Position numbers and translations under genes: made by a program. 64,000 nucleotides of DNA. Source: Candidatus Uhrbacteria bacterium RIFCSPLOWO2_01_FULL_47_17. Lineage in GTDB: Bacteria; Patescibacteriota; Patescibacteriia; UBA9934; GWF2-40-263. The notes below the pieces were generated by a model. That model was not told the origin of the DNA and ran no database searches. It saw only the letters and a program-made list of their open reading frames with translations. This document shows positions 4,202-41,779 of this stretch, piece after piece (position 1 is the stretch's first letter; every line of letters starts with the position of its first letter). The DNA is taken from NCBI GenBank assembly GCA_001791305.1, contig MGEI01000005.1:146698-210697 (forward strand), in the 5' to 3' direction.

Positions 4202-5341
4202 ATGAGCACAAAGAAAATACAAAAAGGATTAAACCCCGCCATGTTTCTCGCTCGTAACCTGCTCGACACAAAATCCCTCAAGCAAATACCCACTCGAAAT
4301 GGTTATGGTGAAGGCGTGGTCGAGGCTGGTAAGCGCGACAAAAATGTCGTTGTCCTTTGTTGTGATTTAACCGAATCAACCAGATCCGAAGCGTTTAAAA
4401 AAGCGTTCCCAGATCGATTCGTGCAAATGGGCGTTGCGGAACAATCGCTTGCAAGTATCGGTGCCGGAATGGCGATGGCGGGAAAAGTTCCATTCATTTC
4501 GAGCTACGCAACGTTCTCGCCTGGCCGCAACTGGGAACAGATTCGCACAACGATTGCGCTTCAAAACTCAAACGTAAAGATCGCGGGCGCACACTCCGGC
4601 CTCTCGGTGGGCCCCGACGGCGCAACACACCAAATGCTCGAGGATATTATTATCACGCGTGCCATTCCAAACATGGTCGTTGAGGTACCCTGCGACATGA
4701 TCGAAACACGTAAGACAACAATCGCCGGAGCAAAAATGGTCGGGCCATTTTATTTCCGCTTCGCTCGCGCTGCATCACCCGTGTTTACAACCGAGAAAAC
4801 ACCATTCAAACTCGGGCGCGCGGAAGTCTACCGATTCGGAAATGATCTTACTCTCGTTGCCGCCGGCCCCCTCCTCTACGAAGCGCTCCTCGCGGCAGAT
4901 GCGCTTTCGAAGGAGCACGGAATCGAATGTCGTGTGATCAATTCGCACTCAATCAAGCCGTTCGACGAAAAAACGATCATTACTGCTGCAAAAGAAACAG
5001 GTGCGATCGTCACAATCGAAGAAGGACAAGTAAGCGGCGGTCTCGCGGGTGCTGTATGCGAAACACTCGCACTCACAACTCCCGTTCCGGTCGAACGTGT
5101 CGGGACGCAAAACCAGTTCGGCGAATCCGGTGAACCCGCACAAGTCCTTGAAGCCTTCGGTCTCACTGCGCCCTTCATCGCCCTTGCCGCCGTGCGCGTG
5201 CTTGATCGCAAACTCGGGCACCCCGTCACAAAAATCCCCGCACATATCCAAGGAGCCGAAGTGCGCCGCATGATGATGCGAAAAGAAATCTTCGAAGAAG
5301 CCCTTTCGAGAGCCCCAAAAAAATGGGGAGGAAACCATTGA
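4202..5341 (+). CDS. transketolase, C-terminal (pyrimidine-binding) subunit
   Basis: FVQMGVAEQSLASIGAGMAMAGKVPF, GPDGATHQMLEDI, C-terminal transketolase_C region; immediately follows the N-terminal subunit. Confidence 0.85.
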   Translation: MSTKKIQKGLNPAMFLARNLLDTKSLKQIPTRNGYGEGVVEAGKRDKNVVVLCCDLTESTRSEAFKKAFPDRFVQMGVAEQSLASIGAGMAMAGKVPFISSYATFSPGRNWEQIRTTIALQNSNVKIAGAHSGLSVGPDGATHQMLEDIIITRAIPNMVVEVPCDMIETRKTTIAGAKMVGPFYFRFARAASPVFTTEKTPFKLGRAEVYRFGNDLTLVAAGPLLYEALLAADALSKEHGIECRVINSHSIKPFDEKTIITAAKETGAIVTIEEGQVSGGLAGAVCETLALTTPVPVERVGTQNQFGESGEPAQVLEAFGLTAPFIALAAVRVLDRKLGHPVTKIPAHIQGAEVRRMMMRKEIFEEALSRAPKKWGGNH

Positions 5342-5405
5342 CGATTCAATGGTTTTTTGGTACCTTTTCGCCTTGCACTTCACCGCAAGCAAGGGGCATC
5401 CCCTC

Positions 5406-6284
5406 ATGAAAAACCTCCGAGATGTTCTTTTGATCACGATCGATAATGATGCCGAAGCGCGGCTCATCCTCATGATCGCCACAAAAGCAGGGATGCGCGT
5501 CTATCGCTCTGCACAGCGCCATGGCGCAACACTCGACGAAGAAACAGGAATAGTCGAATTCGCTCAAACAGTGGATCTTCCCTGCATTTGGACAATCGAA
5601 ATGCCGGGTGAGAAAACGGAAGCAATGTTGCGAAGCTCTGGCTTCGACCTCACGATCATCGACCACCACACCTATGGCGATCTCGACCGTGTCCATAACG
5701 CACAGGGCGCGCGCGTGCCGAGTTCACTCGAACAGTTCCTGCAGCATGCAAAAATCACCAAAACAGATCTCGCACGTCTCGGATTCGATCCCCTCCTTGT
5801 GTACGGAATCGGCATCATGGATGATCGCTATGTGGAGGGGTTGCGAAGGGCTGGATATGACAAGCCCATGATCGAAAGCGTCCTTTCCTACCGTGAAGAA
5901 CTCGAACGACAAATCGATCCGCACTATGCGGAACGGCTGAGTGCAGCAGAGCTTGCCTGGAAAAACAGGCAGATTCACAACGGCGTTATTGTCTACGCAA
6001 GTGACAATCAGCTTTCCATCTCACGCCTTGTCAGCACGATCGCCATTCAACACAACGTTGAATCGAAGCCATCGATCATTTTCTGTCGTGGTGGAAAACA
6101 ATTATTCGTCCTGAATATTTTGACCGCGCAAGTTGAGCGTCTGAATCGCGCCTTCCCCGGCCGTTACACCTGGACGTACGGCGGAGGTCACTGCTGGGGA
6201 CTCAATAATGAAAAAAGTCCAAAAAACCTCTGGGTTACGATCGACAGCAAAGACCTCGTAGACCTTCTCACCCAAGCTGAATAA
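5406..6284 (+). CDS. hypothetical protein embedded in the sugar-metabolism cluster
   Basis: long clean ORF; ATG 5406 (MKNLRDVLLITID) chosen over the track start 5349, which would overlap tkt; no motif recognised. Confidence 0.5.
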   Translation: MKNLRDVLLITIDNDAEARLILMIATKAGMRVYRSAQRHGATLDEETGIVEFAQTVDLPCIWTIEMPGEKTEAMLRSSGFDLTIIDHHTYGDLDRVHNAQGARVPSSLEQFLQHAKITKTDLARLGFDPLLVYGIGIMDDRYVEGLRRAGYDKPMIESVLSYREELERQIDPHYAERLSAAELAWKNRQIHNGVIVYASDNQLSISRLVSTIAIQHNVESKPSIIFCRGGKQLFVLNILTAQVERLNRAFPGRYTWTYGGGHCWGLNNEKSPKNLWVTIDSKDLVDLLTQAE

Positions 6285-13189: not shown

Positions 13190-14989
13190 TTATTCAATCT
13201 CCTTTGTCTGTAACTCATACAATTCCGCATACAACCCCTTTCGACCTACCAGATCTTCATGCGTTCCCTCTTCTTCGACACGGCCTGACTTGAGAACGAC
13301 GATTCGATCTGCAACGCGCACACTCGAGAAACGATGCGAGATCACGATCACGGATTGCTCACGTGTTTTCTTAAAAAGTTCTTGAAAGAATTGATACTCA
13401 GATCGGGCGTCGAGTGCTGCGGTTGGTTCATCAAGAATCAAGAGCGACGCGTCTTTGATGAGCGAACGTGCAAGAGCTATTTTTTGCCACTCGCCACCGG
13501 AAAGTTCGGTTCCTCCCTCACCCGTTTCGTGTCCGAGCATGGTTTCATAGGTATTCGACAAACCAGTAATTTTTTGATGAATCCCGGAGCGTTCTGCCGC
13601 GAGCTGAATGGCGACGAGATCATCAATACGAGCAAGTTCACCGACTCCGATATTTTCTTTCACGGTAAGTGAGTACTGTTCAACATCCTGAAACGTTACC
13701 CCGATTTGTTTTCGTAGAGACTCGAGTGTATATGCACGATAATCTTTCCCATTCACAAGAACCGTTCCGCTTGTCGGTTCATATAATCGCATAAGAATTT
13801 TCACGAGCGTGGATTTTCCTGCACCATTCTCACCCACAATCGCCAGACGTTCACCTTTTTTAATAGAAAACGAAATATCCTTCAAAGCCGCAATGGTTGT
13901 TTCTGGATATGCGTAGGAAACATGATCCAATTCAAGTGATTCAATAGAAGAAAGCTGCTCTGCGTCCGGACGATCAACAATAATTGGTTGCAGTTTTTCG
14001 AGCGTTCGAAATGAATTCAAGTAGTTTGTGTGCTCGAATAATTGAGCGATTTGCCACGCCTGACTCACCATGAAACGTTCGAGGCCGACAAACGCACCAA
14101 TGTAAAGTGTGAATTGTCCAATCGAAATTTCTTGCAACACAACAGATTGCACAACGCTTACATAGACAAAAATATAAACGGAAAATGTACAAATATTCGC
14201 AACCAAACTTGCAAACAAACGTTTCTGTTCGATTTCTTTTTCTTTGCGAACAACTTCTGCATAGGATGCATGATAACGATCGGCAAAATACGTTCCAACG
14301 TGATGTATCATGAGTTCAACAAGTGTTTGTGTGCGCCGAAATAAGCTTTCAAGATACCAAACCTTTTTCATGATCCCCGCCTTACCCCAAGAAATATTCA
14401 TGCCAATATAAATCGCCCATACAGAAATAGCCACACTCGGAATAACAGCGATGACAAATAAAAGCGTGAACCATGGAGAGAACTTTGCCGCAAGAACAAT
14501 ATAGGAAATGGATGCCGCAATATTTCCAATCGACTGAAAAAGAATCCATGTCATCTGCTGAGGACGCCATCGCTGATCCTTTAAGTAGGTGAGGAGCGTG
14601 TGGACAGATGGCTTTTCAAGAGTTGGAAGATCAAGACTCACGGTCATTCGATGAATACGGTCTGTGACCGCAAGCATCAAATCCCCTTTCAATGCCTCTG
14701 TCATGGAATCACTCAAAAGAAACACCACGCGTTGTAGACCAAGCAAAACCAAAGACGCGATAATAAACCAAATAAGTTGCTGACTCCAAACACTGTTCGT
14801 CGAACCATGAACCAAAATATCAATAATACGTGCACCTAGGTACAACTCGGCCGGCGGAATAATTCCGATCAACAACTGAACAATCGTCAATTGAATGGTT
14901 TGTCGTGGTGCAATTTTAAAAACGAACGCGAGTTCACGAAAGAATGTTCTTATAAGCGTGCTTATAGGGATGCGTTCAATTTTTGACAT
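13190..14989 (-). CDS. ABC transporter, fused permease/ATP-binding exporter (MsbA/ABCB-like)
   Basis: six-TM N-terminal half; Walker A GENGAGKST, signature LSGGEWQKIALARSL, Walker B LILDEPTAALD. Confidence 0.85.
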   Translation of the reverse strand: MSKIERIPISTLIRTFFRELAFVFKIAPRQTIQLTIVQLLIGIIPPAELYLGARIIDILVHGSTNSVWSQQLIWFIIASLVLLGLQRVVFLLSDSMTEALKGDLMLAVTDRIHRMTVSLDLPTLEKPSVHTLLTYLKDQRWRPQQMTWILFQSIGNIAASISYIVLAAKFSPWFTLLFVIAVIPSVAISVWAIYIGMNISWGKAGIMKKVWYLESLFRRTQTLVELMIHHVGTYFADRYHASYAEVVRKEKEIEQKRLFASLVANICTFSVYIFVYVSVVQSVVLQEISIGQFTLYIGAFVGLERFMVSQAWQIAQLFEHTNYLNSFRTLEKLQPIIVDRPDAEQLSSIESLELDHVSYAYPETTIAALKDISFSIKKGERLAIVGENGAGKSTLVKILMRLYEPTSGTVLVNGKDYRAYTLESLRKQIGVTFQDVEQYSLTVKENIGVGELARIDDLVAIQLAAERSGIHQKITGLSNTYETMLGHETGEGGTELSGGEWQKIALARSLIKDASLLILDEPTAALDARSEYQFFQELFKKTREQSVIVISHRFSSVRVADRIVVLKSGRVEEEGTHEDLVGRKGLYAELYELQTKEIE

Positions 14990-15537
14990 AGGAAGAAAAT
15001 AATTGAATCCAAATCAATCGCATCATAATCTGTCGTATCCACAATATGCGTCCGCACATCAGCCAACAAGGGCTCGATGCGTTTTGAAAAATAGCGTTCG
15101 TCGAATTCACCCAAAACGGTCTCGATCGAATCACAATGTCCTGGGTGGCGCGTCGTGAGAGAGCGTTCGAGAAATCTCTTGCGCGCAACGTGTGGTTCCG
15201 CCGTCATCCAGATCTGAATAAGTTCGGCATTATGTCGTTCAGAAAATTCCTGCAGCCAAATCCGATCATCTGCCCAAATAAATGTTGCGTCGGCGATCAC
15301 GGATTCACCGCGTGCCAAATACATCTGAATCAATTGGCGAAATACTGGATGCGTCGCGGCGCCAATTTCTTTTGACCACGCGCGATCTTTATATCCACCA
15401 ACATCGAACAACGCTTCTTTAATTTCATCCAGGGCAATTCGAACAAACCCCGTTTTTTCCGCCACAAACTTCGACACGGTTGTTTTCCCCGTCGCAATCG
15501 AGCCGCCAACAATGATGAGTTTAGGATGCGAGTCCAT
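14962..15537 (-). CDS. P-loop NTPase / nucleoside(tide) kinase-like protein
   Basis: IIVGGSIATGKTTVS Walker A; ATG 15537 preferred over the Arg-rich upstream extension in the track. Confidence 0.55.
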   Translation of the reverse strand: MDSHPKLIIVGGSIATGKTTVSKFVAEKTGFVRIALDEIKEALFDVGGYKDRAWSKEIGAATHPVFRQLIQMYLARGESVIADATFIWADDRIWLQEFSERHNAELIQIWMTAEPHVARKRFLERSLTTRHPGHCDSIETVLGEFDERYFSKRIEPLLADVRTHIVDTTDYDAIDLDSIIFFLCQKLNASL

Positions 15538-16282
15538 AACATTTTCGTAAAATCTCTTCTGCAATCTCTTTTTCTTCCGGCGTATTAATCCCAATCGCCT
15601 CTTCCGGCGGAATCGATACGGTTGGAATATCGATTCCCTCCTCGAATGCCATCGCGACGAGATCGGTGAGATAATATTCACCCTGCGCATTCTCGTTTTT
15701 TAATTGGGCGAGACGATCCCAGAGCCAATCGGTTCGAAAACAGAAGAGAGCTGGATCGCGTTCGAGAATTTGTTTTTGTTCTTCGCTTGCATCCTTGAAT
15801 TGCTTATTGCCGATCACTCGACCGCTTTCATCACGCAGGATGCGTCCCCATTTCTCAAATGCTTTGTACCAGCCTTCGGTCGATGGCAACGTCGTAGTGG
15901 CCATCGTGACGTGTGCAGCGCGATCGCTGTGAGTTGATGCGAGACGATTCAGTGTTGACGCAGACAAAAACGGATGATCGCCGTAAAGGACGATGAGCGC
16001 ATCTGCATCTTCGACGAATTCCTGTGTGCATCGAACCGCGTGTCCGGTACCGAGCTGTTCTTCTTGAATGGCGTGCGAGCAAGTTCGACCAATCACTTCA
16101 CCGAGGCGTGGCGAATCTTTTCCAATCACAACAACCGGATTCCCCTCGAGACCCGATGCTTCTATAGACTCGAGCAAGTGCTGCAAAATAGGCTTCCCCG
16201 CAACCGGAGTCAGCGCCTTCGGAATATCCTGTTTCATGCGCGTACCTTTTCCGGCCGCGAGGATGACGATTCGGAATTTCAT
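15521..16282 (-). CDS. sugar-phosphate nucleotidyltransferase (GlmU N-terminal-domain-like)
   Basis: ILAAGKGTRMKQDIPKAL, EEQLGTGHAV, YGDHPFL. Confidence 0.7.
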   Translation of the reverse strand: MKFRIVILAAGKGTRMKQDIPKALTPVAGKPILQHLLESIEASGLEGNPVVVIGKDSPRLGEVIGRTCSHAIQEEQLGTGHAVRCTQEFVEDADALIVLYGDHPFLSASTLNRLASTHSDRAAHVTMATTTLPSTEGWYKAFEKWGRILRDESGRVIGNKQFKDASEEQKQILERDPALFCFRTDWLWDRLAQLKNENAQGEYYLTDLVAMAFEEGIDIPTVSIPPEEAIGINTPEEKEIAEEILRKCYGLAS

Positions 16283-16450: not shown

Positions 16451-16562
16451 GTCCTGGCGCCGACCTACTCTCGCCCAATCGGACTACCATCGGCCCTACG
16501 ACGCTTAACTTCTGTGTTCGGGATGGAAACAGGTGTGACCATCGTGGAAGAGGCACCAAGAC
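16451..16562 (-). rRNA. rrf: 5S rRNA
   Basis: rc aligns to E. coli 5S (CCGAACACAGAAGTTAAGCGTCGTAGGGCCGATGGTAGT...GAGAGTAGG); helix I pairing cttggtgcc/ggcgccagg. Confidence 0.85.
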
Positions 16563-16868
16563 AATGTAAACTTGCTGTTCTCACGAACAACAATTGAAGA
16601 TCAACAGAACTTATTCTAAACCTAATTTTTTCTGGTACGTGCGTACTCTGTGAACTCTCTTATGCAAGAGAGGTTGTAGAGCTCGACCTATTAGTACTGC
16701 TCGGCTGAACATCTTACGATGCTTACACCTACAGCCTATCAACCTGCTAGTCTCGCAGGGGTCTCAAATGAAGACTTATCTTTGGATCGGCTTCACGCTT
16801 AGATGCTTTCAGCGTTTATCCGAACCGAACGTAGCTACCCAGCGATGCCCTTGGCAGGACAACTGGTG

Positions 16869-16908
<40 letters not shown>

Positions 16909-16944
16909 TGGATTCCATCAATCTTCGACGCCCATGGTAGATAG

Positions 16945-16996
<52 letters not shown>

Positions 16997-17027
16997 TGGC
17001 GAACAGCCAAACCCTTGGGACCTTCTA

Positions 17028-17063
<36 letters not shown>

Positions 17064-17604
17064 GAACCACGCCGTCGCTGTGGACGCTTGGGCGTGACTA
17101 GCCTGTTATCCCCGGAGTAGCTTTTATCCGATGAGCTTCCGCCGTCCTATTTCGTACGGTCGGATCACTAACTTCTGCTTTCGCAACTGCGCGACTTGTA
17201 AGTCTTGCAGTAAAGCTGGCTTCTGCGTTTGCACGTCCAGCGCGATTTCCATCCGCGCCAAGCCAACCTTTGTAAACGCCTCCGTTACATTTTGGGAGGC
17301 ACCCGCCCCAGGTAAACTACCCACCAGATCCTGTCCCTCCCTCCGGTTTCACGGAAGGTGGTTAGACTTTACACAACGCAAGGGTGGTATCTCACTGGTG
17401 CCCGAAGGCTCCCACCTATTCTGAACATGCGGAACATAAAATCAAGACCAAGTTGTAGTAAAGCTTCACGGGGTCTTTTCGTCTTACCACGGGAAGTGAG
17501 CATCTTCACTCACATTGCAATTTCGCCGAGTACATTGTTGAGAGAGTCTCCAAGTCGTTATGCCATTCGTGCAGGACGGAACTTACCCGTCAAGGAATTT
17601 CGCT

Positions 17605-18330
17605 CTTTGTTGTTACGATCCATTGATCGACGTAGTCATTTCTGCCACGTTCTGCATGTCACCATGCAGGTCGGACTCTATCTTCTTCGAAGGTTTCGAA
17701 GTCTGGCGTATAGTCTCTGAGGATTCCAGAAATTTTGATGGAACTTTTCGATTCATCAATTGGATAATCTTTGCAATTTCTTTCTGACCTTGATGATTCT
17801 TGTGCGTTCCTTCCTTCATCATTTGAAGGAGCTGAGCAAAGAGTTCAAAATCATTTTTCTTTGAAGTTTGCAAAGAGTATTTTTGGAAGAACGGAATAAT
17901 CTTCTCTCGAAGATCTTCTTGCGATCTTACACAATACTTTAGCAATGGTTCTCTGTGATTATCATGACGAGTGTTCTGATAAATCTGACCGCATCCGAAA
18001 TACTCACGAATGAGTTCCAGACTTGATCGACTTTTCATACCTTGTGTCACAACAAACTCAGGAAACACCTGCCATCCAAGGCTTGTGGTTTTGTTTCGAA
18101 TCAAACTGACTGAGAAGCAACCCTCTCCGTCAACAAATCCGCAAATCCACCACGCCATTTCTAGTCTTTCCTGCTGATTGTCTCGTTTTTTTATCATACT
18201 ATGGTTATATTTTACCATAGAGTGAACGAGGTGTTCCAGCATATAGCCAAATTTTTCTTTATCTACGTCTGTGAGGCATCACAGTTCGATAATGAGAGGT
18301 CATTCACCTCACTAAGGCAGCTTTTATTTC
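17605..18330 (-). mobile_element. 23S rRNA intron (likely group I) in domain IV, inserted within the conserved CCUAAGGU^AGCGAAAUUCC sequence, carrying a LAGLIDADG homing-endonuclease ORF
   Basis: 23S similarity breaks after ...caaggaatttcgct (17604) and resumes at accttaggacgattatagtt (18331); about 726 nt in between. Confidence 0.7.
17613..18242 (-). CDS. LAGLIDADG homing endonuclease (intron-encoded)
   Basis: WICGFVDGEGCFSVS motif (LAGLIDADG variant), 209 aa, entirely inside the 23S intron. Confidence 0.75.
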   Translation of the reverse strand: MLEHLVHSMVKYNHSMIKKRDNQQERLEMAWWICGFVDGEGCFSVSLIRNKTTSLGWQVFPEFVVTQGMKSRSSLELIREYFGCGQIYQNTRHDNHREPLLKYCVRSQEDLREKIIPFFQKYSLQTSKKNDFELFAQLLQMMKEGTHKNHQGQKEIAKIIQLMNRKVPSKFLESSETIRQTSKPSKKIESDLHGDMQNVAEMTTSINGS

Positions 18331-19182
18331 ACCTTAGGACGATTATAGTTATCGCCGGCGTTCATCCGCGCTTCAGTCGAAAGCTTTGACCCCGAAGGAT
18401 CTAACCCCCTTCCTTAACGTTCGGACACTGGCCAGGCATCAGCCCCTATACTTCACTTTGCAGTTTTGCAGGGACCTGTGTTTTTGGTAAACAGTCGCTT
18501 GGAGTCTTTCGCTGCGGGTCGCCCCCTCACAGGGGCAACCAGGCCTTATCCCGAAGTTACGGCCGTTGTTTTGCCGAGTTCCTAAACAATGTTTCTCTCG
18601 TACGCCTTAGTGCATTACGCACCCACTCACCTGTGTCGGTTTACGGTACGGGTCTCTATCACATTAGCCTTAGCGGCTTTTCTTGGCTCCGTGTTCTTTC
18701 CCCTTGTTTCCTGTTGCCAGAAAACTTGCGATCATATTCGTGCTCTGGATTAAACCAAGCGTGGTGGATTTGCCTGCCACGCGCCTAAATACGCCCAACG
18801 TCATAGCCATAGGACGCGGGAAATTTCACGAAGCGTCCCCGCTTCAGTGTGATAAAAAGTGCAGGAATATTAACCTGCTATGCATCGACTACGCCTTTCA
18901 GCCTCGCCTTAGCACCCGACTAACCCTGGGACGATTTGCGTTGCCCAGGAACCCTTAAGTTTACGGCGGACGGGGTTCTCACCCGTCTTTTTGCTACTCA
19001 TGCCAACATTCTCCCTTCGCATCGCTCCACCATGGGTCACCCCTTTGGCTTCAGCGCAATACGAATGCTCTCCTACCGCTTAACATTTAAAAATGTTAAA
19101 CCCTCAGCTTCGGCACATCATTTAGCCCCGGTACATTTTCGGCGCAGAAAAACTTGACCAGTGAGCTATTACGCTATCTTTA

Positions 19183-19213
<31 letters not shown>

Positions 19214-19792
19214 TTGTTTAAGTCTTTCCACCACCTTTTACACTTAATGATGATTTTGGGGCCTTAGCTTGAGATCTGGGCTGTTTCCCTTTCGACGTAT
19301 GGAGCTTAGCCCCCATCGTCTGACTGCCGGGAACACATGTTGGTATTCGGAGTTTGATTAGAGTCGCTACCCGAAGGCGCAAACTCGATTCAGTGCTCTA
19401 CCCCCAACACATTATTTACCGACGCTAGCCCAAAAGCTATCTCGGAGAGAACCAGCTATTACCGAGTTCGATTGGAATTTCTCCGCTATCCACAACTCAT
19501 CCCCGTGTTTTGCACGGCACGTGGGTTCGGCCCTCCACGAACTGTTACATTCGCTTCAGCCTGGTCATGGATAGGTCACCCGGTTTCGGGTTATGTGCGC
19601 GCCACCAATATTTCGCGGATTAACGCTCGCTTTCACTATGGCTTCGTCCCGGAGGACTTAACCAAGCGACGCACAACACACTCGTTGGCTCATTCTTCAA
19701 TAGGAACGCCATGACCCACTCTCCGCCTTGCGGCTTCGAGGGGCGCTGACTCCTTGTAAGTATACGATTTCAGATACTATTTCATTCCCCTT

Positions 19793-19826
<34 letters not shown>

Positions 19827-21094
19827 GTACACTATCGATCAGAACATGTATTTAGCTTTGCCAGATAGTCCCGGCAGATTCCTACAGGATTTCACGAGTC
19901 CCGTAGTACTCAAGAACAGTAATCATAATGACGTAATATATTTCGCGTACAGGACTTTCACCTTCTATGGTGTGACGTTCCAGTCACTTCCCCTATATAT
20001 TACATGGATTTCATTATCCGTTTTTTGAAGAAAACGACACTACCGTCTTACAACACCTATCTCTCGCAACGACTTCAATCTTTCGCATCCATTCACACAC
20101 AGTCTTGCGACTCCATGCTTACAAACACTTCACGAGAGAGGTTTGAGCTGTTCCCTTTTCGCTCGCCACTACTAAGGGAATCTATTCGTTTCGCGTTTCC
20201 ATACGACGTGCTGTCGGGTAAACCCGACTGGCCGCATGAAAACGTTAAACGAAATTGTTTTTTCTTTTCCTCTGGCTACTGAGATGTTTCACTTCACCAG
20301 GTGCCCTCCTTGCAACTATGTATTGATTGCAAAGTAATGCGGTATGAACCGCATTGGGTTGCCCCATTCGGATATCTTCGGATCAAAGGTTGTTTGCCAC
20401 CTCCCCGAAGCTTTTCGCAGGCTACTACGTCCTTCGTCGGCATGTTCTGTCAAGCCATCCTTCGTATACTCTTATTAATATGCTCTACAACCACTCTTAT
20501 TTAAGAGTGGTTCACTTCTTTGTGGTTTCTCTAATTCTGTTGATCTTCAATTGTAATGTTCGTGCGACCCTTGAAGGGTTTACCGAAATCTGTTTGATTC
20601 AAGGATCTGTTCTGGCCTTGAGGCCAGAGCTGAGCTACGACGCGAGAGTCGGAACTCAGCTCTAGGCACAAGAGACAAAGTGATGGAGTGGTTGAGTGGT
20701 GGAGTGAAGGTACTTGGCTTTTTGTTGAGAAGACACTATAAAACCGCCTTGTGGGCGGTCTTCAAGCAACAAAATTGTTACGATGAAGATCGTCCCTTAT
20801 ATTTGGTTTGCGTTACATGTGAACATATCCCCTTGTTCTCCGTAAGCTCCTTCTCCTCTCCATCCCATCAGCGGACCCATCTTCATGTGGGTCGATCAGC
20901 CAGATTATTCTTGGGACAAAGAAGAAGAAACGTATTCGATTTAAGTGGTGGAAGTTTAACGGAAGCCGAAAAGACTGTCAAGGGAATTTGTCCCAATTGT
21001 TTCCACAGGCATGTTTAACGATTTTATCTTGACAAAACCCCCATTTTCCGCTATGATTGTCTGATCCAAACGTTGGATCAACCAAGGAGGAGAG

Positions 21095-22501
21095 ATGCGT
21101 TCTTTCATCATAATCGCGATCGTTTTCATGTCCGCCTGTGAAAACAAGGTCGAAGGCCCAAAAGGCGATCAAGGAATCCAAGGTGTCGCTGGAGAGAAGG
21201 GCGACAAGGGTGAGCCTGGAGAAAAAGGCGAGGAAGGATCGAAGGGCGATCAGGGTGCAACCGGTTTGCAAGGCGAAAAAGGTTTGCAAGGCATCGCCGG
21301 TGAAAAAGGCGAAACCGGTTCGATCGGTTTGGCCGGAGTTCAAGGCGCGAAGGGAGATCCAGGATCGATCGGTCTTCCAGGTTCAGACGGAACATCTTGC
21401 GTCGGTCAGTCTGTAACCGAGGGCGTGCTCGTCACATGTGGCAAGGAAACATTCCTCGTGAAGCACGGCGATGTTGGACCGGCGGGAGCGAAGGGTGACA
21501 AAGGTGATGCTGGTTCGCAAGGCTTGAAAGGCGACCAAGGATTGCAAGGGATCCAAGGTGTCGCTGGAAAAGATGGCGTGCCTGGTCTCGATGGATTGCC
21601 TGGAGCAAAGGGCGATGTTGGACCGGCGGGAGCGAAGGGTGACAAAGGTGATGCTGGTTCGCAAGGCTTGAAAGGCGACCAAGGATTGCAAGGGATTCAA
21701 GGTGTCACCGGAAAAAATGGCACACCCGGTCTTGATGGATTGCCTGGAGCAAAGGGCGATGTTGGTTCTCAAGGGCTACAAGGAATTCAGGGAGACAAAG
21801 GAGATGCAGGATCCAAAGGTTCACCCGGATGGGATGGGATACCAGGATTAAAAGGAGACAAAGGGAATCAGGGTGAACAGGGTTTACAAGGAATCCAAGG
21901 ACCACAAGGTGTTCAAGGAAAACCAGGAGAACTTGGAAAAAACCTTGTGGCACAGTGCCCTGAAGGATCTAAAGCAATGGTGTTTAAAGGACACCTTAAG
22001 TACTGTGCTCATAAGTTTGTCTTTGAAAAAGGACTGACTTGGGAACAATGTCTGAACACGTGTCTGACGAACGGCTTATTGATTCCCCCACTTCACGAAT
22101 TTGCAATTATTTGCCTTGGAGATCCGACATTCTTCGATCAGGAAAAAGTTAATGGATGCCCGGACTTCCCCAACTGCTCAACCATTACTGGATGCCCGTC
22201 AGACTACAGTTGCTCAGACAAGCTCTGGTTCCACGTTGCCGAAAATCAGGCTGGTGGAGATACGACTCTTCGTCCAACACTAGCCTTCGAGCCATACTCC
22301 CCAGAAATGGGTAAGTATTTTTGCGAGGCCGTTCTGGAACAGAGTAAGGGAGTTGTGTATGCACAACCTAAATCTGGTCAAAAACGCATCTTCCTTAATT
22401 GGTACAGCTACCTTCGAACAGTGACGGTGCAAGACGACTTTGTTCCCACCGTGGACGCAACATTGCTTCCACGCGGCTGTCTTTGTGGAAAACAAATATG
22501 A
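21095..22501 (+). CDS. collagen-like triple-helix-repeat lipoprotein with Cys-rich C-terminal domain
   Basis: lipoprotein-type signal (IIIAIVFMSAC); about 260 aa of uninterrupted G-X-Y; internal 144-bp (48-aa) direct repeat x2 (21470-21613 / 21614-21757); about 190-aa Cys-rich C-terminus. Confidence 0.75.
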   Translation: MRSFIIIAIVFMSACENKVEGPKGDQGIQGVAGEKGDKGEPGEKGEEGSKGDQGATGLQGEKGLQGIAGEKGETGSIGLAGVQGAKGDPGSIGLPGSDGTSCVGQSVTEGVLVTCGKETFLVKHGDVGPAGAKGDKGDAGSQGLKGDQGLQGIQGVAGKDGVPGLDGLPGAKGDVGPAGAKGDKGDAGSQGLKGDQGLQGIQGVTGKNGTPGLDGLPGAKGDVGSQGLQGIQGDKGDAGSKGSPGWDGIPGLKGDKGNQGEQGLQGIQGPQGVQGKPGELGKNLVAQCPEGSKAMVFKGHLKYCAHKFVFEKGLTWEQCLNTCLTNGLLIPPLHEFAIICLGDPTFFDQEKVNGCPDFPNCSTITGCPSDYSCSDKLWFHVAENQAGGDTTLRPTLAFEPYSPEMGKYFCEAVLEQSKGVVYAQPKSGQKRIFLNWYSYLRTVTVQDDFVPTVDATLLPRGCLCGKQI

Positions 22502-26963: not shown

Positions 26964-27617
26964 TTATTTATAAACATCCTCCAGGCTCTGTCCCGGGGCG
27001 TAATCAAACGGGGTCTTTGCTATTTCCAAAATTGTTTCTTTGAGAACGGGATATTGTGCTCCCATATAGTGATCATCTGTCGCGGTCTCCATAAATCGGG
27101 CGCGCAATTGATCGGCTAATTTTCGTCCATGCTCGATCGGAACCAACTTATCGTCCGCTGAGTGAATCACAACAAACTCTCTGGCTTTCCACATAAGAAC
27201 GTCTGCGTCGAGGTCATCGACGAATAAGCGACGGAGTTCTGGGCGAGAAACTTTCCATGGTGCGGCGACAAGGATGACGGCGCGTGGAGTCTCGGTCATT
27301 TCAACTGCCTCAAGATACTGTAAAATAGCAAGGGCACCCAAAGAATGCCCAAGCAAAATATCCTCGTTCTTTAAATACCCAATTTCTTTTTTCATGACCT
27401 CCATGAGCTTTGGCATATCGATGCCTTCTCGAATTTCAGGATCGATTGGGACGCTTGGATCCAAAACAGGAGCCTTCAAAGGAAGTTCTGGGGCAATCAC
27501 CTCAAAGCCAGCTGCGTGAAGTTCATCACGAAGCCATGGGTGAAAGTTCATGGATGGACTTGCATTAAAGCCGTGAACAAGGATGATGCGCATACTTTTC
27601 GAGGTGGAGCATACCAA
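26964..27617 (-). CDS. alpha/beta hydrolase, RBBP9/YdeN-like serine hydrolase family
   Basis: MRIILVHGFNASP, nucleophile elbow LLGHSLGA, about 215 aa. Confidence 0.7.
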   Translation of the reverse strand: MVCSTSKSMRIILVHGFNASPSMNFHPWLRDELHAAGFEVIAPELPLKAPVLDPSVPIDPEIREGIDMPKLMEVMKKEIGYLKNEDILLGHSLGALAILQYLEAVEMTETPRAVILVAAPWKVSRPELRRLFVDDLDADVLMWKAREFVVIHSADDKLVPIEHGRKLADQLRARFMETATDDHYMGAQYPVLKETILEIAKTPFDYAPGQSLEDVYK

Positions 27618-27718
27618 TTAAGAGGGTCCATGTCGAGGCATTGACATTTTGCACTTTTTTCCGTACAGTCCTTGGTCTTTGTAATCAAACAAAGGCAAAC
27701 CACCGGCGTGAGGCAACC

Positions 27719-28585
27719 ATGGGCAAACGACGCTTAAATGGCGAACATATCCAGGTTAGGCTTCCGGAAACCCTGTTTTCTCTTCCGGAAGGCTATACAG
27801 ACAAGCTCAGAGCTGCATCCTACAAAGGAGGCGAACGCACTGCTTCCATCTTGGAAAAAAAGGAAGCAATTTCGGAAGGCGAATTTGCCTTAGAACAAGA
27901 AACATACCGACAGATAGCGGGAGAAAATTTGGCCTTTTTCCATTTGCTGATGAGTTGTTATCTCTCGCGAATGGTTTACGACTTTGAGAGGATTGCTTTC
28001 GATCATCGAGCGAGTCTACGCAATAAATACCTCATTGCGGCCATGTCGCAAAAGGAGCTCACGATCGCGTGTCTATACCTGAAGCCAAAGATCATCCCCC
28101 ACATCCCCTCTTGGGACAAACACATCCACATGGGCTACAACGGCTGGTGGGCATCACACTTTTATGGAGCGGTGACCGTGGCGCGTGTCGCCCGGCGACT
28201 TTTACAAGAAGGAGCTGAGGTTCGACTTCCAACCGCCGCAGAGGACATCGATGACAAAATCGATCTCATCGCCTCATTCAAAGGACGATCGGAAGGTCTG
28301 TGCATGCAGATCAAGTCAGATGACCAGGTCGAGTGGATTCAACACCGCGTGTGTTCCGGACTCAATCCGAATCGTGAACCGGAATCGTTGCGACGCTTCC
28401 TCTTGGGAACGCGAAAATTCCAAGATCAATACCGCGGCATTTGGATTCCGATTGAACTCACCCTTGGCTCAAAGCCGTTTCAAGACGGAACAACCGTTTG
28501 GCGGGGTCCAATCGTTGATATTTTCCACACGATCCTTACAAAGGCGCTCGAAGAACACGACCCATCGCTTCGTGCGGCCATGTAA
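27719..28585 (+). CDS. uncharacterised protein, tandem paralog 1 (RHH-like N-terminus KRRxxGxxIQVRLPE)
   Basis: ATG 27719; paralogous to 28730..29629 (shared AxENLAFFHLLMS / AEENVGLYHLLLS, ARVxxxxxxxGAE, KIDLIASF..GLCMQIKS / RIDLLVRF..GLCVQIKT, GIWIPIELTLG / GMWFPLEIMIG). Confidence 0.55.
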   Translation: MGKRRLNGEHIQVRLPETLFSLPEGYTDKLRAASYKGGERTASILEKKEAISEGEFALEQETYRQIAGENLAFFHLLMSCYLSRMVYDFERIAFDHRASLRNKYLIAAMSQKELTIACLYLKPKIIPHIPSWDKHIHMGYNGWWASHFYGAVTVARVARRLLQEGAEVRLPTAAEDIDDKIDLIASFKGRSEGLCMQIKSDDQVEWIQHRVCSGLNPNREPESLRRFLLGTRKFQDQYRGIWIPIELTLGSKPFQDGTTVWRGPIVDIFHTILTKALEEHDPSLRAAM

Positions 28586-28595
28586 CTCCTCCTTC

Positions 28596-28640
28596 GACCC
28601 GCTTTGGGTCGTTTTTATTACGTCGCTCGCGAGCGACGTA
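28596..28640. terminator. hairpin terminator (gacccgctttgggtc + T-run) followed by a 20-bp perfect palindrome acgtcgctcgcgagcgacgt between the two paralogs
   Basis: read directly. Confidence 0.5.
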
Positions 28641-28729
28641 ATTTATTTGGAACGGTTGACAAACTCGTCTTTTTCACGTTAAATAGCTGGTCACCCCTTT
28701 CCGGGTGTCACATCAGAAGGAGGTTCTCT

Positions 28730-29629
28730 GTGGCCAAGCGTCGTTGTAAAGGCGCGTACGTCCGAATCGAGCTTCCGGACAAACGCACGACTCTTCCTGA
28801 AAATACAGCCGATCTTCTGAAAGAAGCGGCGGACTTTGCCATCTTGCGTGCTCACTCCATTTGGAAAATGTCCGAGCAAAACAAGCGTGGATGGATCACT
28901 TACATACAAATTAGCGAAGAAACATTTCGCGAAGATCGCGAACGATTTCAGGAAATCGCGGAAGAAAACGTCGGGCTTTATCATCTGCTCTTGTCCGTCT
29001 TTTTCACGAAGATTCATCAAGAAATGGAACCAAGAGCCTCGGCGCATAAAATTCGTACACGAAACGCGTACCTTTCGGCCGGAATGGCGCAACGAGAAAT
29101 CTCAAGCGCCTGCCTCTGTCTCAGCGAGGAGAGTGCGAGAACGATTCCTCAAATGAAATCTGAAACATTTGGAATCGATCCTCATATTTGGCTTACAGGC
29201 TTTATTGGAGGAAGGTCGGTTGCACGTGTGATTGCTGCATTCATGAATCGTGGGGCAGAAATCTTTTTCCCGACAGCGTACATCGACATTCAAGGTCGCA
29301 TCGATCTGTTGGTGCGATTCCCTGTGAATAGTCTTGGGCTGTGCGTACAGATCAAAACATTTCAGAACCTGAACCACATTCGTTATCGTCTCATCCCGGA
29401 AGTGCCTTATCATCAAATCAAGGAGCTGTCTGAAGACGATCAATACTTTCTGAAAGGCGTAACGGAATTCCGCAGCGACAATATCGGCATGTGGTTCCCT
29501 CTTGAAATCATGATCGGAGACGCGTCCTACACACAACGATACATCGATCCACCGCGTAACATTACTTACGCGTTTGATCGAATGCTCATGGATCTCTTCG
29601 AACACGCAAAAGAATTCGCAACCCCTTAA
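28730..29629 (+). CDS. uncharacterised protein, tandem paralog 2
   Basis: GTG start 28730, 6 nt after RBS aaggagg, aligning VAKRRCKGAYVRIELPD with MGKRRLNGEHIQVRLPE of paralog 1; the track ORF starts further upstream at 28604. Confidence 0.55.
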   Translation: MAKRRCKGAYVRIELPDKRTTLPENTADLLKEAADFAILRAHSIWKMSEQNKRGWITYIQISEETFREDRERFQEIAEENVGLYHLLLSVFFTKIHQEMEPRASAHKIRTRNAYLSAGMAQREISSACLCLSEESARTIPQMKSETFGIDPHIWLTGFIGGRSVARVIAAFMNRGAEIFFPTAYIDIQGRIDLLVRFPVNSLGLCVQIKTFQNLNHIRYRLIPEVPYHQIKELSEDDQYFLKGVTEFRSDNIGMWFPLEIMIGDASYTQRYIDPPRNITYAFDRMLMDLFEHAKEFATP

Positions 29630-29710
29630 CGCTTCCGCTGGAAGCGTTTTTTCTTTCCCAATTGAAAAATCTGAGCGTGTCGCGTACACTCGAAGCACAA
29701 ACGAACGAAT

Positions 29711-29837
29711 GATGAAACTTCCAAAATTGGTGCCTCGCGCCGTGCTGGAGGCAAAAAGATCGTGAGAGGTATCCTAAAATACCTCGAACAATTTTTTGCC
29801 GAAGCGCAAGCGAGGCGCCGATTTTGGAAGTTTCATC
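29711..29837 (+). other. structured leader: 28-bp inverted repeat (gatgaaacttccaaaattggtgcctcgc ... gcgaggcgccgattttggaagtttcatc) enclosing a structured loop of about 70 nt, ending 1 nt before tRNA-Leu(TAG)
   Basis: arms are near-perfect reverse complements; the same core IR (AAACTTCCAAAATTGG/CCGATTTTGGAAGTTT) precedes tRNA-Leu(TAA) at 39697-39822. Confidence 0.45.
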
Positions 29838-29922
29838 GCGAGCGTGGCGGAATTGGTATACGCACTAGCCTTAGGAGCTAGCGGAGCAATCCATGAGAGT
29901 TCGAGTCTCTCCGCTCGCACCA
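29838..29922 (+). tRNA. tRNA-Leu (anticodon TAG)
   Basis: GCGAGCGTGGCGGAATTGGTATACGCACTAGCCTTAGGAGCTAGCGGAGCAATCCATGAGAGTTCGAGTCTCTCCGCTCGCACCA; long variable arm, 3-bp D stem. Confidence 0.9.
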
Positions 29923-30125
29923 AAAAATCAGAACTGAAAAAATTATCCACACACCCACCATTGACAACAACAAAATTTTTTGATGAAATGTTTATACAAG
30001 AAATAAGAACTCCTAGATTGATCATATTCATCTGGGAGTTCTTTTTTGTTTCCAAAAAATGGAAACACGATCTGATCCATCGTCTTCACGTGCGCCGCGT
30101 GTTCATTCATTTTCATTCTGACCCT

Positions 30126-40711: not shown

Positions 40712-41779
40712 ATGATCGAACGCGAGGAATTCGAAGCACAATCTGATCTCTCGACAAGCTCAAGAAATAGTGAGGCAACCGTCACCCCAAGCGCTTCTCC
40801 CGAAGAGCGGGATTTTGAATTTTCGCTTCGTCCAAAAACGCTTGCCGAATTTGTCGGGCAAGAGGGATTAAAAGAGAACTTGACCGTATTCATGCAAGCG
40901 GCAAAAAAGCGTGAGGAACCGATCGAACATGTGCTTCTCTACGGAAACCCGGGGCTTGGAAAAACCACCCTTGCGCACATCATTGCAACAGAAATGGGTT
41001 CACAGATTCGTGTGACGTCGGGCCCCGCCCTCGAGAAAGTTGGCGACCTTGCCGCGATCCTCTCAAACCTCCAGAAAGGCGATATTCTTTTTATCGACGA
41101 AATCCACCGCATCAATAAAACGATCGAGGAAGTTTTGTATCCTGCGATGGAAGACTATGCGCTCGACATTATTGTCGGCAAAGGCCCGACCGCTCGTACA
41201 CTTCGCATCAACCTTGAACACTTTACGATCATTGGAGCGACAACACGCCTCTCGCTTTTATCCGCACCACTTCGAGATCGTTTCGGCATGGTGCACCACT
41301 TGGATTTTTACACGCGCGATGATCTTGCAATCATCTTACGTCGCAATGCGAATCTGCTTCGATCCCCCATTCACGAAGACGCGGTCGAACTCCTCGCGAT
41401 GCGCTCGCGTCTGACTCCACGTATTGCAAACCGCATGCTCCGCCGTGCACGCGATTTTGCGCAAGTGAAAGGTGACGGTTCGATTACACCCGATCTCTGT
41501 CGCGATGCGCTTGCCATGATGCGCGTGGATGAAGAAGGCTTGGACGCCGTTGATCGCCACATTCTCACAACCATCATGGAAAAATTCCAAGGCGGACCCG
41601 TTGGACTCTCCACCATTGCCGCCGCGACGCAAGAAGAAATGGAAACGATTGAGGATGTCCACGAGCCTTACTTACTCCAACTCGGCTTCCTCGCACGAAC
41701 CCCGCGCGGACGCGTCGCCACAGATCGCGCCTACAAACACCTCGGCCGCGATATCCCAGAACAAAGTCGTCTGATATAA
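40712..41779 (+). CDS. ruvB: Holliday junction branch-migration ATPase RuvB
   Basis: [24 protein letters not shown], sensor/arginine motifs. Confidence 0.9.

Follow-up and report, generated by a model that had tools for sequence, protein, structure and literature searches.

Here, we analyse two adjacent genes, which we call A and B, in a 64,000-nucleotide stretch of DNA (the window) from Candidatus Uhrbacteria bacterium RIFCSPLOWO2_01_FULL_47_17, and propose that the C-terminal part of their products very probably adopts the PD-(D/E)xK (restriction-endonuclease-like) nuclease fold. Gene A (27719..28585, stop codon included) starts with ATG and encodes 288 amino acids (aa), and gene B (28730..29629) starts with GTG and encodes 299 aa; both lie on the forward strand, as do all the features of the locus described below unless a strand is given. 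The two proteins are 33% identical across 275 residues (BLASTP, E=6e-44), which bears out an earlier note on this DNA that had put their identity at about 30% over the whole length. On this alignment their paralogy is far beyond chance: the two genes are diverged copies belonging to a single family of proteins that lacks annotation. The product of gene A is identical to a database protein (P0001) named “hypothetical protein, Candidatus Uhrbacteria”, and orthologs of the B type are 56-68% identical to B.

Two shared motifs to which the earlier note had drawn attention are found in both proteins: an N-terminal segment of the form x-K-R-R...(I/V)-x-(V/I)-x-L-P-(E/D), and, in the second half, the block D..(K/R)IDL(I/L)..F....GLC(M/V)QIK. 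At the 5' end of gene A lies a 13-nt inverted repeat (TAGGCTTCCGGAA / TTCCGGAAGGCTA, 27757-27795), 92% complementary and with its arms 13 nt apart, which codes for both LPE motifs.

Transcription and translation signals

Each gene is preceded by a promoter-like site and followed by an intrinsic-terminator-like hairpin with a T-tract. For A, a consensus scan places the promoter-like site at 27641..27669 (TTGACA, 17 nt, TACAGT), and its TTGACA, its spacing and the 5' untranslated region (5'UTR) are conserved in two related loci that also carry both genes (L003 and L017). The terminator-like element after A (28595..28616, hairpin 28595-28611) recurs at the same position in both of these loci. The promoter-like site of B (28656..28684) consists of TTGACA (28656-28661), 17 nt and TTAAAT (28679-28684); it is likewise conserved in L003 and L017, and in a further related locus, L015, its -10 hexamer reads TTAACT. 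The hairpin and T-tract after B occupy 29628..29658. Judged from these signals, the two genes form separate transcription units with a TTGACA promoter and a terminator apiece.

The start of B was also called correctly: a ribosome-binding site, AAGGAGG (28717..28723), stands six nt before the GTG, its GGAGG is invariant in L003 and L017, and the GTG is conserved in both loci, with an ATG aligned to it in L015. In the 5'UTR of B, downstream of the -10 hexamer and ahead of the ribosome-binding site, lies a small hairpin (GTCACCC / GGGTGTC, 28690..28709) that is kept with other sequence in L003 (GGCACCC/GGGTGCC) and L015 (GGGCACCC/GGGTGCC); in L017 it is harder to make out. The stem might have a stabilising or a regulatory role.

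The terminator and the 20-bp palindrome that had been reported between the genes are both there, the palindrome displaced by one base (core acgtcgctcgcgagcgacgt, 28620-28639) and part of a longer perfect palindrome of 26 nt (ATTACGTCGCTCGCGAGCGACGTAAT, 28617..28642). It occurs once in the window. When the spacers between A and B in the window, L003 and L017 are aligned, it stands out as a 22-nt insertion confined to the window, and it is absent from all 18 related loci searched. The sequence forms another strong hairpin, with a T-rich tail after it, and is probably a second terminator hairpin and not a conserved operator.

A family without annotation

Single-sequence searches of Pfam, NCBIfam, PHROGs and PADLOC with A and B returned nothing beyond noise, with no Pfam match to either protein at E<=10, and profile searches of Protein Data Bank (PDB) sequences gave chance-level matches only. 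The family is a real one, uniform in length. A word-indexed search of 5.8 billion proteins found seven relatives of A and nine of B, and an exhaustive HMMER search with a 16-sequence profile found 278 representatives of clusters at 50% identity (E<=1e-3), of which 135 still match at E<=1e-10 and 28 at E<=1e-30. Nearly all are 250-320 aa long and are matched across most of their length. The four source names seen among the members are all Uhrbacteria or “Patescibacteria group”.

Residue conservation was counted in 139 family members, in the numbering of gene A. The most constant positions are D182 (134/139), G150 (133/139), D176 (130/139) and W144 (129/139), followed by K199 (120/139), Q111 in the N-terminal domain (112/139), Q197 (109/139, with Ser in 14) and R156 (107/139). 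When the same 139 members were scanned one by one against NCBIfam and PADLOC, only noise was returned; against Pfam at E<=0.1 they gave 24 weak member-hits to 23 families, of which six are to nuclease families (DUF4365 twice, RE_BanI, PDDEXK_5, PDDEXK_9 and Mrr_cat, the last matched by a single member at E=0.07).

Fold of the C-terminal domain

The identification of the fold relies on structure prediction, profile comparison and conservation. For A, AlphaFold2 gave a confident full-length model from the 16-sequence alignment (predicted local distance difference test, pLDDT, 89; predicted template modelling score, pTM, 0.88). A second model, restricted to residues 138-288 (28130..28582), is confident too (pLDDT 85.7). 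According to DSSP, the second half of A comprises a helix (143-163), a strand (166-170), a short helix, three strands (183-187, 192-200 and 207-211), a helix (222-237), a strand (241-249) and a last helix (264-278). Helix 143-163, strands 166-170, 183-187 and 192-200, helix 222-237 and strand 241-249 thus supply the alpha-beta-beta-beta-alpha-beta core of PD-(D/E)xK nucleases, an order that fits in both the full-length and the domain model.

Searched against the PDB and against the viral models of BFVD, the full-length model had no significant match, and it is the isolated C-terminal domain alone that gives a coherent structural answer. Its best Foldseek match is the Hjc/Hje structure 1gef (E=4.4e-3, probability 1.00), with further Hjc/Hje matches to 1ob9, 1ob8, 4tkd, 2wiw and 2eo0; after these come the restriction-like endonuclease of the R2 retrotransposon, AF1548, I-Ssp6803I, EcoRV and HincII, such that almost all of the top matches are PD-(D/E)xK nucleases. 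The sequence profiles point the same way. In hhalign, the profile of the family's C-terminal domain matched a 4-sequence Hjc alignment with P=2.2e-4, with none of the controls (reversed and 30 column-shuffled) better than P=0.019, and it matched a deeper Hjc alignment, made from sequences verified against the PDB and extended by homolog search, with 88.4% probability and P=2.8e-6. Every version of this comparison pairs D182, Q197 and K199 with the catalytic D33, E46 and K48 of Pyrococcus furiosus Hjc. The weak Pfam member-hits in nuclease families lie in the same direction as the structural and profile matches.

We conclude that the C-terminal ~150 aa very probably have the PD-(D/E)xK fold. 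The profile-profile search and structure prediction that had been suggested as a check of a nuclease-like D...QxK core therefore uphold it at the level of the fold, with Hjc/Hje and other PD-(D/E)xK nucleases as the best matches and with the core residues conserved among the 139 members.

Two groups of known enzymes come closest. With Hjc/Hje (PF01870; PDB 1gef, 1hh1, 1ob8, 2wcw) the family shares the minimal PD-(D/E)xK core, its elements arranged in the same order, as well as a local sequence of the type h-D-L-h-A ... L-C-h-(E/Q)-h-K. It differs in being about 290 aa long with an extra helical N-terminal domain of 135 aa, whereas Hjc has about 120-140 aa; in keeping only the Asp and the Lys of the tetrad E9/D33/E46/K48 (P. 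furiosus numbering); and in having an additional conserved Asp six residues before the core Asp. In addition, the named family members are bacterial, from the candidate phyla radiation (CPR), whereas Hjc is archaeal, and Hjc is not among the Pfam families matched by the 139 members at E<=0.1. With Mrr_cat (PF04471; AF1548, PDB 1y88) and DUF4365 it shares the D...QxK version of the motif, a nuclease domain at the C-terminus and a length of about 300 aa; 1y88 is among the Foldseek matches, and three members have weak Pfam matches to these two families, although none comes near the Pfam thresholds. Mrr has an N-terminal DNA-binding domain, whereas that of the present family is all-helical and unmatched.

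The candidate active site

The proposed active-site block of A (28244..28315) contains D176 (28244-28246), D182 (28262-28264), Q197 (28307-28309) and K199 (28313-28315), and the equivalent residues of B are D186 (29285-29287), D192 (29303-29305), Q207 (29348-29350) and K209 (29354-29356), so that the motif is intact in both. D182 directly precedes the second core strand (183-187), and Q197 and K199 lie in the third (192-200), where the (D/E)-x-K position of the superfamily is expected; here the family has Lys in most members, with the acidic position occupied by Gln or, less often, Ser.

Gln at the ExK position occurs in Mrr-type enzymes and in TnsA, and some active members of the superfamily are known with this variant. 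As read from the alignments, the site is non-canonical in three respects: the Glu of the first helix is absent, Gln stands in place of Glu, and there is an extra, near-invariant D176 upstream. EcoO109I, with the motif EPD-XXK, offers a precedent, a documented shift of the acidic residue to just upstream of the PD Asp (PMC3424549); in the present family, an acidic residue so placed could make up for the missing carboxylate of the third strand. The analogy is one of residue placement only, and EcoO109I was matched neither in sequence nor in structure. By this analogy D176, six residues before D182, would be the obvious candidate for a relocated carboxylate.

The N-terminal domain

Residues 1-137 of A (27719..28129) form, in the model, an N-terminal strand (11-13) and a family-specific five-helix domain (DSSP helices 26-45, 53-67, 71-90, 97-120 and 126-136). 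This domain has no PDB or BFVD match, and no winged helix or SRA-like reader is recognisable in it.

The N-terminus had been described as resembling ribbon-helix-helix (RHH) proteins, a likeness that our analysis does not support. RHH families are absent from the Pfam hits of A and B (E<=10) and of the 139 members (E<=0.1), and the modelled topology, a 3-residue strand followed by a 12-residue linker and a 20-residue helix that is part of the five-helix domain, is unlike the 45-aa beta-alpha-alpha unit of RHH proteins. Comparison by hhalign with Arc, CopG and two RHH proteins from related loci stayed at noise level, in a test of low power by which CopG matches Arc itself with only P=0.005.

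Chromosomal context and variation among relatives

Genes A and B occupy a slot that is found again in related genomes, in a comparison that covers roughly ten lineages; a search for more loci with the A-type alignment returned a genome locus that was already known and a single locus from a metagenome. The order of the slot is a HAD hydrolase and a Ser_hydrolase (PF06821) on the opposite strand, the family gene or genes, a tRNA-Leu or DUF1653, and a large LTD-domain protein, and its Ser_hydrolase is 59-91% identical to that of the window. What varies is the family gene. The slot holds A plus B in the window, L003-L006 and L017 (gene A being 76% identical to that of the window in L003 and 79% in L017), only an A-type gene in L001, L002 and L010, only a B-type gene in L015 and L016, one distant single copy in L012, and other tandem pairs of more distant members in L007/L008 and L018. 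Homologs do therefore occur as pairs elsewhere, a point that the earlier note had left to be checked, with three lineages having tandem pairs (window, L003 and L017; L007/L008; L018). Two further loci, L009 and L011, have family members in unrelated contexts.

The clearest case is L015, whose Ser_hydrolase is 91% identical to that of the window, yet which lacks gene A altogether. When 3870-4030 of L015 is set against 27590-28760 of the window, the missing cassette spans exactly from the -35 TTGACA of A to the -35 TTGACA of B. The aligned sequences look like the outcome of a loss or a gain of the A cassette between the two promoters.

The family diverges far faster than the Ser_hydrolase, with identities of 25-40% where those of the Ser_hydrolase are 59-76%, and about as fast as the adjoining HAD hydrolase. 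Since its rate matches that of this neighbour, there is no clear sign of exceptional diversification. In a rough neighbour-joining tree A and B fall on deeply separated branches. Taken together with scores against A and B hidden Markov models, the tree has first-position genes leaning towards the A type and second-position genes neutral or slightly of the B type, a pattern that is not decisive as between one old duplication and several separate ones.

Proposed function

In light of this fold and context, what might A and B do? We lean towards the reading that they are independent metal-dependent endonucleases, with a catalytic domain of the Hjc/Mrr-like PD-(D/E)xK type and a family-specific N-terminal domain for substrate recognition, whose specificities diverged after duplication. 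The conserved D176-x5-D182 ... Q197-x-K199 would bind a divalent metal and hydrolyse a phosphodiester bond, most likely in DNA, with D182 and K199 in their canonical roles. Gln (Ser in some members) would take the usual position of Glu, and, with the Glu of the first helix missing, the second carboxylate would come from D176. The substrate would be chosen by the N-terminal domain. Each protein would be self-sufficient, presumably as a homo-oligomer, and the pair would reflect duplication with divergence of specificity and is probably not an obligate two-subunit enzyme. Indeed, the separate promoters, the terminator between the genes, and the fact that the slot of close genomes may hold A alone, B alone or the two together, with relatives surviving on one gene, all suggest that each protein works alone. 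The verdict of the earlier note that no function could be assigned was thus too pessimistic as to fold and chemistry, and was right as to substrate.

Several observations weigh against this proposal of independent endonucleases. The Foldseek scores are borderline by absolute standards (best E=4.4e-3, TM 0.39-0.49). Two of the three catalytic carboxylates of Hjc have no acidic counterpart, E9 being paired by hhalign with V154 and E46 with Q197. No DNA-binding domain is recognisable, and among the window open reading frames (ORFs) scanned there is no methyltransferase, transposase, mobile-element, phage or defence gene nearby that would point to a pathway. In addition, the motif is lost in some members: the single-copy gene of L012 (3343-4197) reads S/N/M/N at the positions of D176, D182, Q197 and K199, and the second gene of the L007 pair (5001-5867) has Val for Lys beside an intact upstream partner. 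Catalysis is therefore not universally required.

One alternative is a lineage-specific recombination or repair nuclease, structure-selective for Holliday junctions or branched DNA, acting as an Hjc-like dimer and possibly replacing RuvC or RecU in reduced genomes. Hjc/Hje are the best structural and profile matches, the slot is stable and has been passed on vertically across Uhrbacteria, with a Ser_hydrolase neighbour of 59-91% identity, and the window encodes RuvB alone (40712-41779, forward strand), with no match to RuvA or RuvC among the window ORFs scanned, a search space of only 64 kb of the genome. However, Hjc is the minimal PD-(D/E)xK fold and hence the default best match for any small member of the superfamily, its catalytic tetrad is not retained, and the family diverges fast beside its Ser_hydrolase neighbour. 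Free duplication and loss, with some single copies having a dead site, would also be unusual for an essential resolvase. A literature search for CPR Holliday-junction resolvases returned nothing relevant. On balance we consider a resolvase unlikely.

Also unlikely, in our judgement, is a solitary restriction-type defence nuclease (Type IV, Mrr-like) acting on foreign or modified DNA, with A and B of different specificity. Mrr is about 300 aa long, with its recognition domain first and its D...QxK nuclease last, and the size and domain order of the family are alike. The weak Mrr_cat and DUF4365 matches, the lack of a partner methyltransferase nearby, the fast divergence, the occurrence of A only, B only or A plus B in one slot, and the tandem pairs that arose, perhaps independently, in two other lineages (L007 and L018) would all suit such an enzyme. 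On the other hand, none of the 139 members has a PADLOC match beyond noise, and so the family shows no evidence of a defence role by this measure; the slot is flanked by housekeeping-type genes and not by a defence island; the gene is not patchy in occurrence, being found in all the syntenic loci examined; and neither a winged helix nor an SRA-like reader can be recognised in the N-terminal domain.

A broader picture, speculative and in its entirety rather improbable, would have a CPR-specific nuclease system tied to one fixed slot, whose deeply diverged “alleles” (A-type, B-type and others) undergo duplication, exchange and loss. Such a system would serve either as a vertically inherited, diversifying, methyltransferase-less restriction-type defence or as the missing Holliday-junction resolvase of genomes with RuvB and without RuvC, and some lineages would have active/inactive heterodimers.

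Heterodimeric pairs are known among PD-(D/E)xK-type nucleases, XPF-ERCC1 and the two-subunit tRNA-splicing endonucleases being examples, and the tandem pairs in three lineages raise the question of whether A and B form an obligate heterodimeric enzyme. The L007 pair, in which the second copy has lost the catalytic Lys and the first keeps it, has the active/inactive pattern of such a heterodimer. In the window, however, both A and B have intact sites and are separated by a terminator with separate promoters, and close relatives have only one of the two genes, all of which makes an obligate heterodimer quite improbable here.

A regulatory reading, with the N-termini as RHH DNA-binding modules and the palindrome as their operator, is very improbable: the segment (I/V)x(V/I)xLP(E/D) is superficially like an RHH strand and helix cap, and the palindrome stands about 15 nt upstream of the -35 hexamer of B, but the Pfam scans hit no RHH family with any member, the modelled N-terminus of A has another topology, the low-powered hhalign test stays at noise level, and the palindrome is a terminator-like, window-only insertion missing from orthologous loci. 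Neither the modules nor the operator is supported.

Other features of the window

Downstream of B, within 29662-29922, lie the tRNA-Leu(tag) of the slot (29838-29922) and, directly upstream of it, a near-perfect hairpin of ~127 nt (arms 29711-29738 and 29810-29837, with inner stems). The region 29700-29925 has a minimum free energy of -112 kcal/mol (z=-10.5). The inverted repeat is ~95% conserved in L003, where the region overall is 89% conserved, with two double compensatory changes in the outer stem, and a conserved promoter-like site (TTGAAA-17-TACACT) lies upstream of the hairpin. No Rfam family matches it, and it may be a structured tRNA leader or a small RNA of no known family.

Elsewhere in the window, the 23S rRNA gene (16670-20485, reverse strand) exceeds the Rfam model by about 890 nt and contains a LAGLIDADG endonuclease ORF (17613-18242, reverse strand) within an intron-type insertion. 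Such insertions are common in CPR rRNA genes. The 5S rRNA follows the 23S rRNA gene at 16452-16560. A Zeta_toxin/AAA_33 kinase-like ORF (14962-15690, reverse strand) adjoins an ABC ATPase, and 21095-22501 (forward strand) encodes a protein of 468 aa that has repeats of the collagen triple-helix type.

Significance

Our findings add a previously unannotated family to a superfamily that is itself very well known; they do not reveal a new kind of system, and no unusual mechanism is indicated. They give a fold and a probable chemistry to a family (278 representatives at 50% identity) that had no annotation in the four libraries searched. Every member with a named source belongs to the CPR, a lineage in which a large share of genes lacks known function. 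If the proteins are active nucleases, they would add to the PD-(D/E)xK superfamily both another active-site variant (D-x5-D...QxK without the Glu of the first helix) and a new N-terminal partner domain. Lastly, the occurrence of A only, B only or A plus B in near-identical genomic backgrounds is a natural experiment on redundancy versus specialisation within the family.

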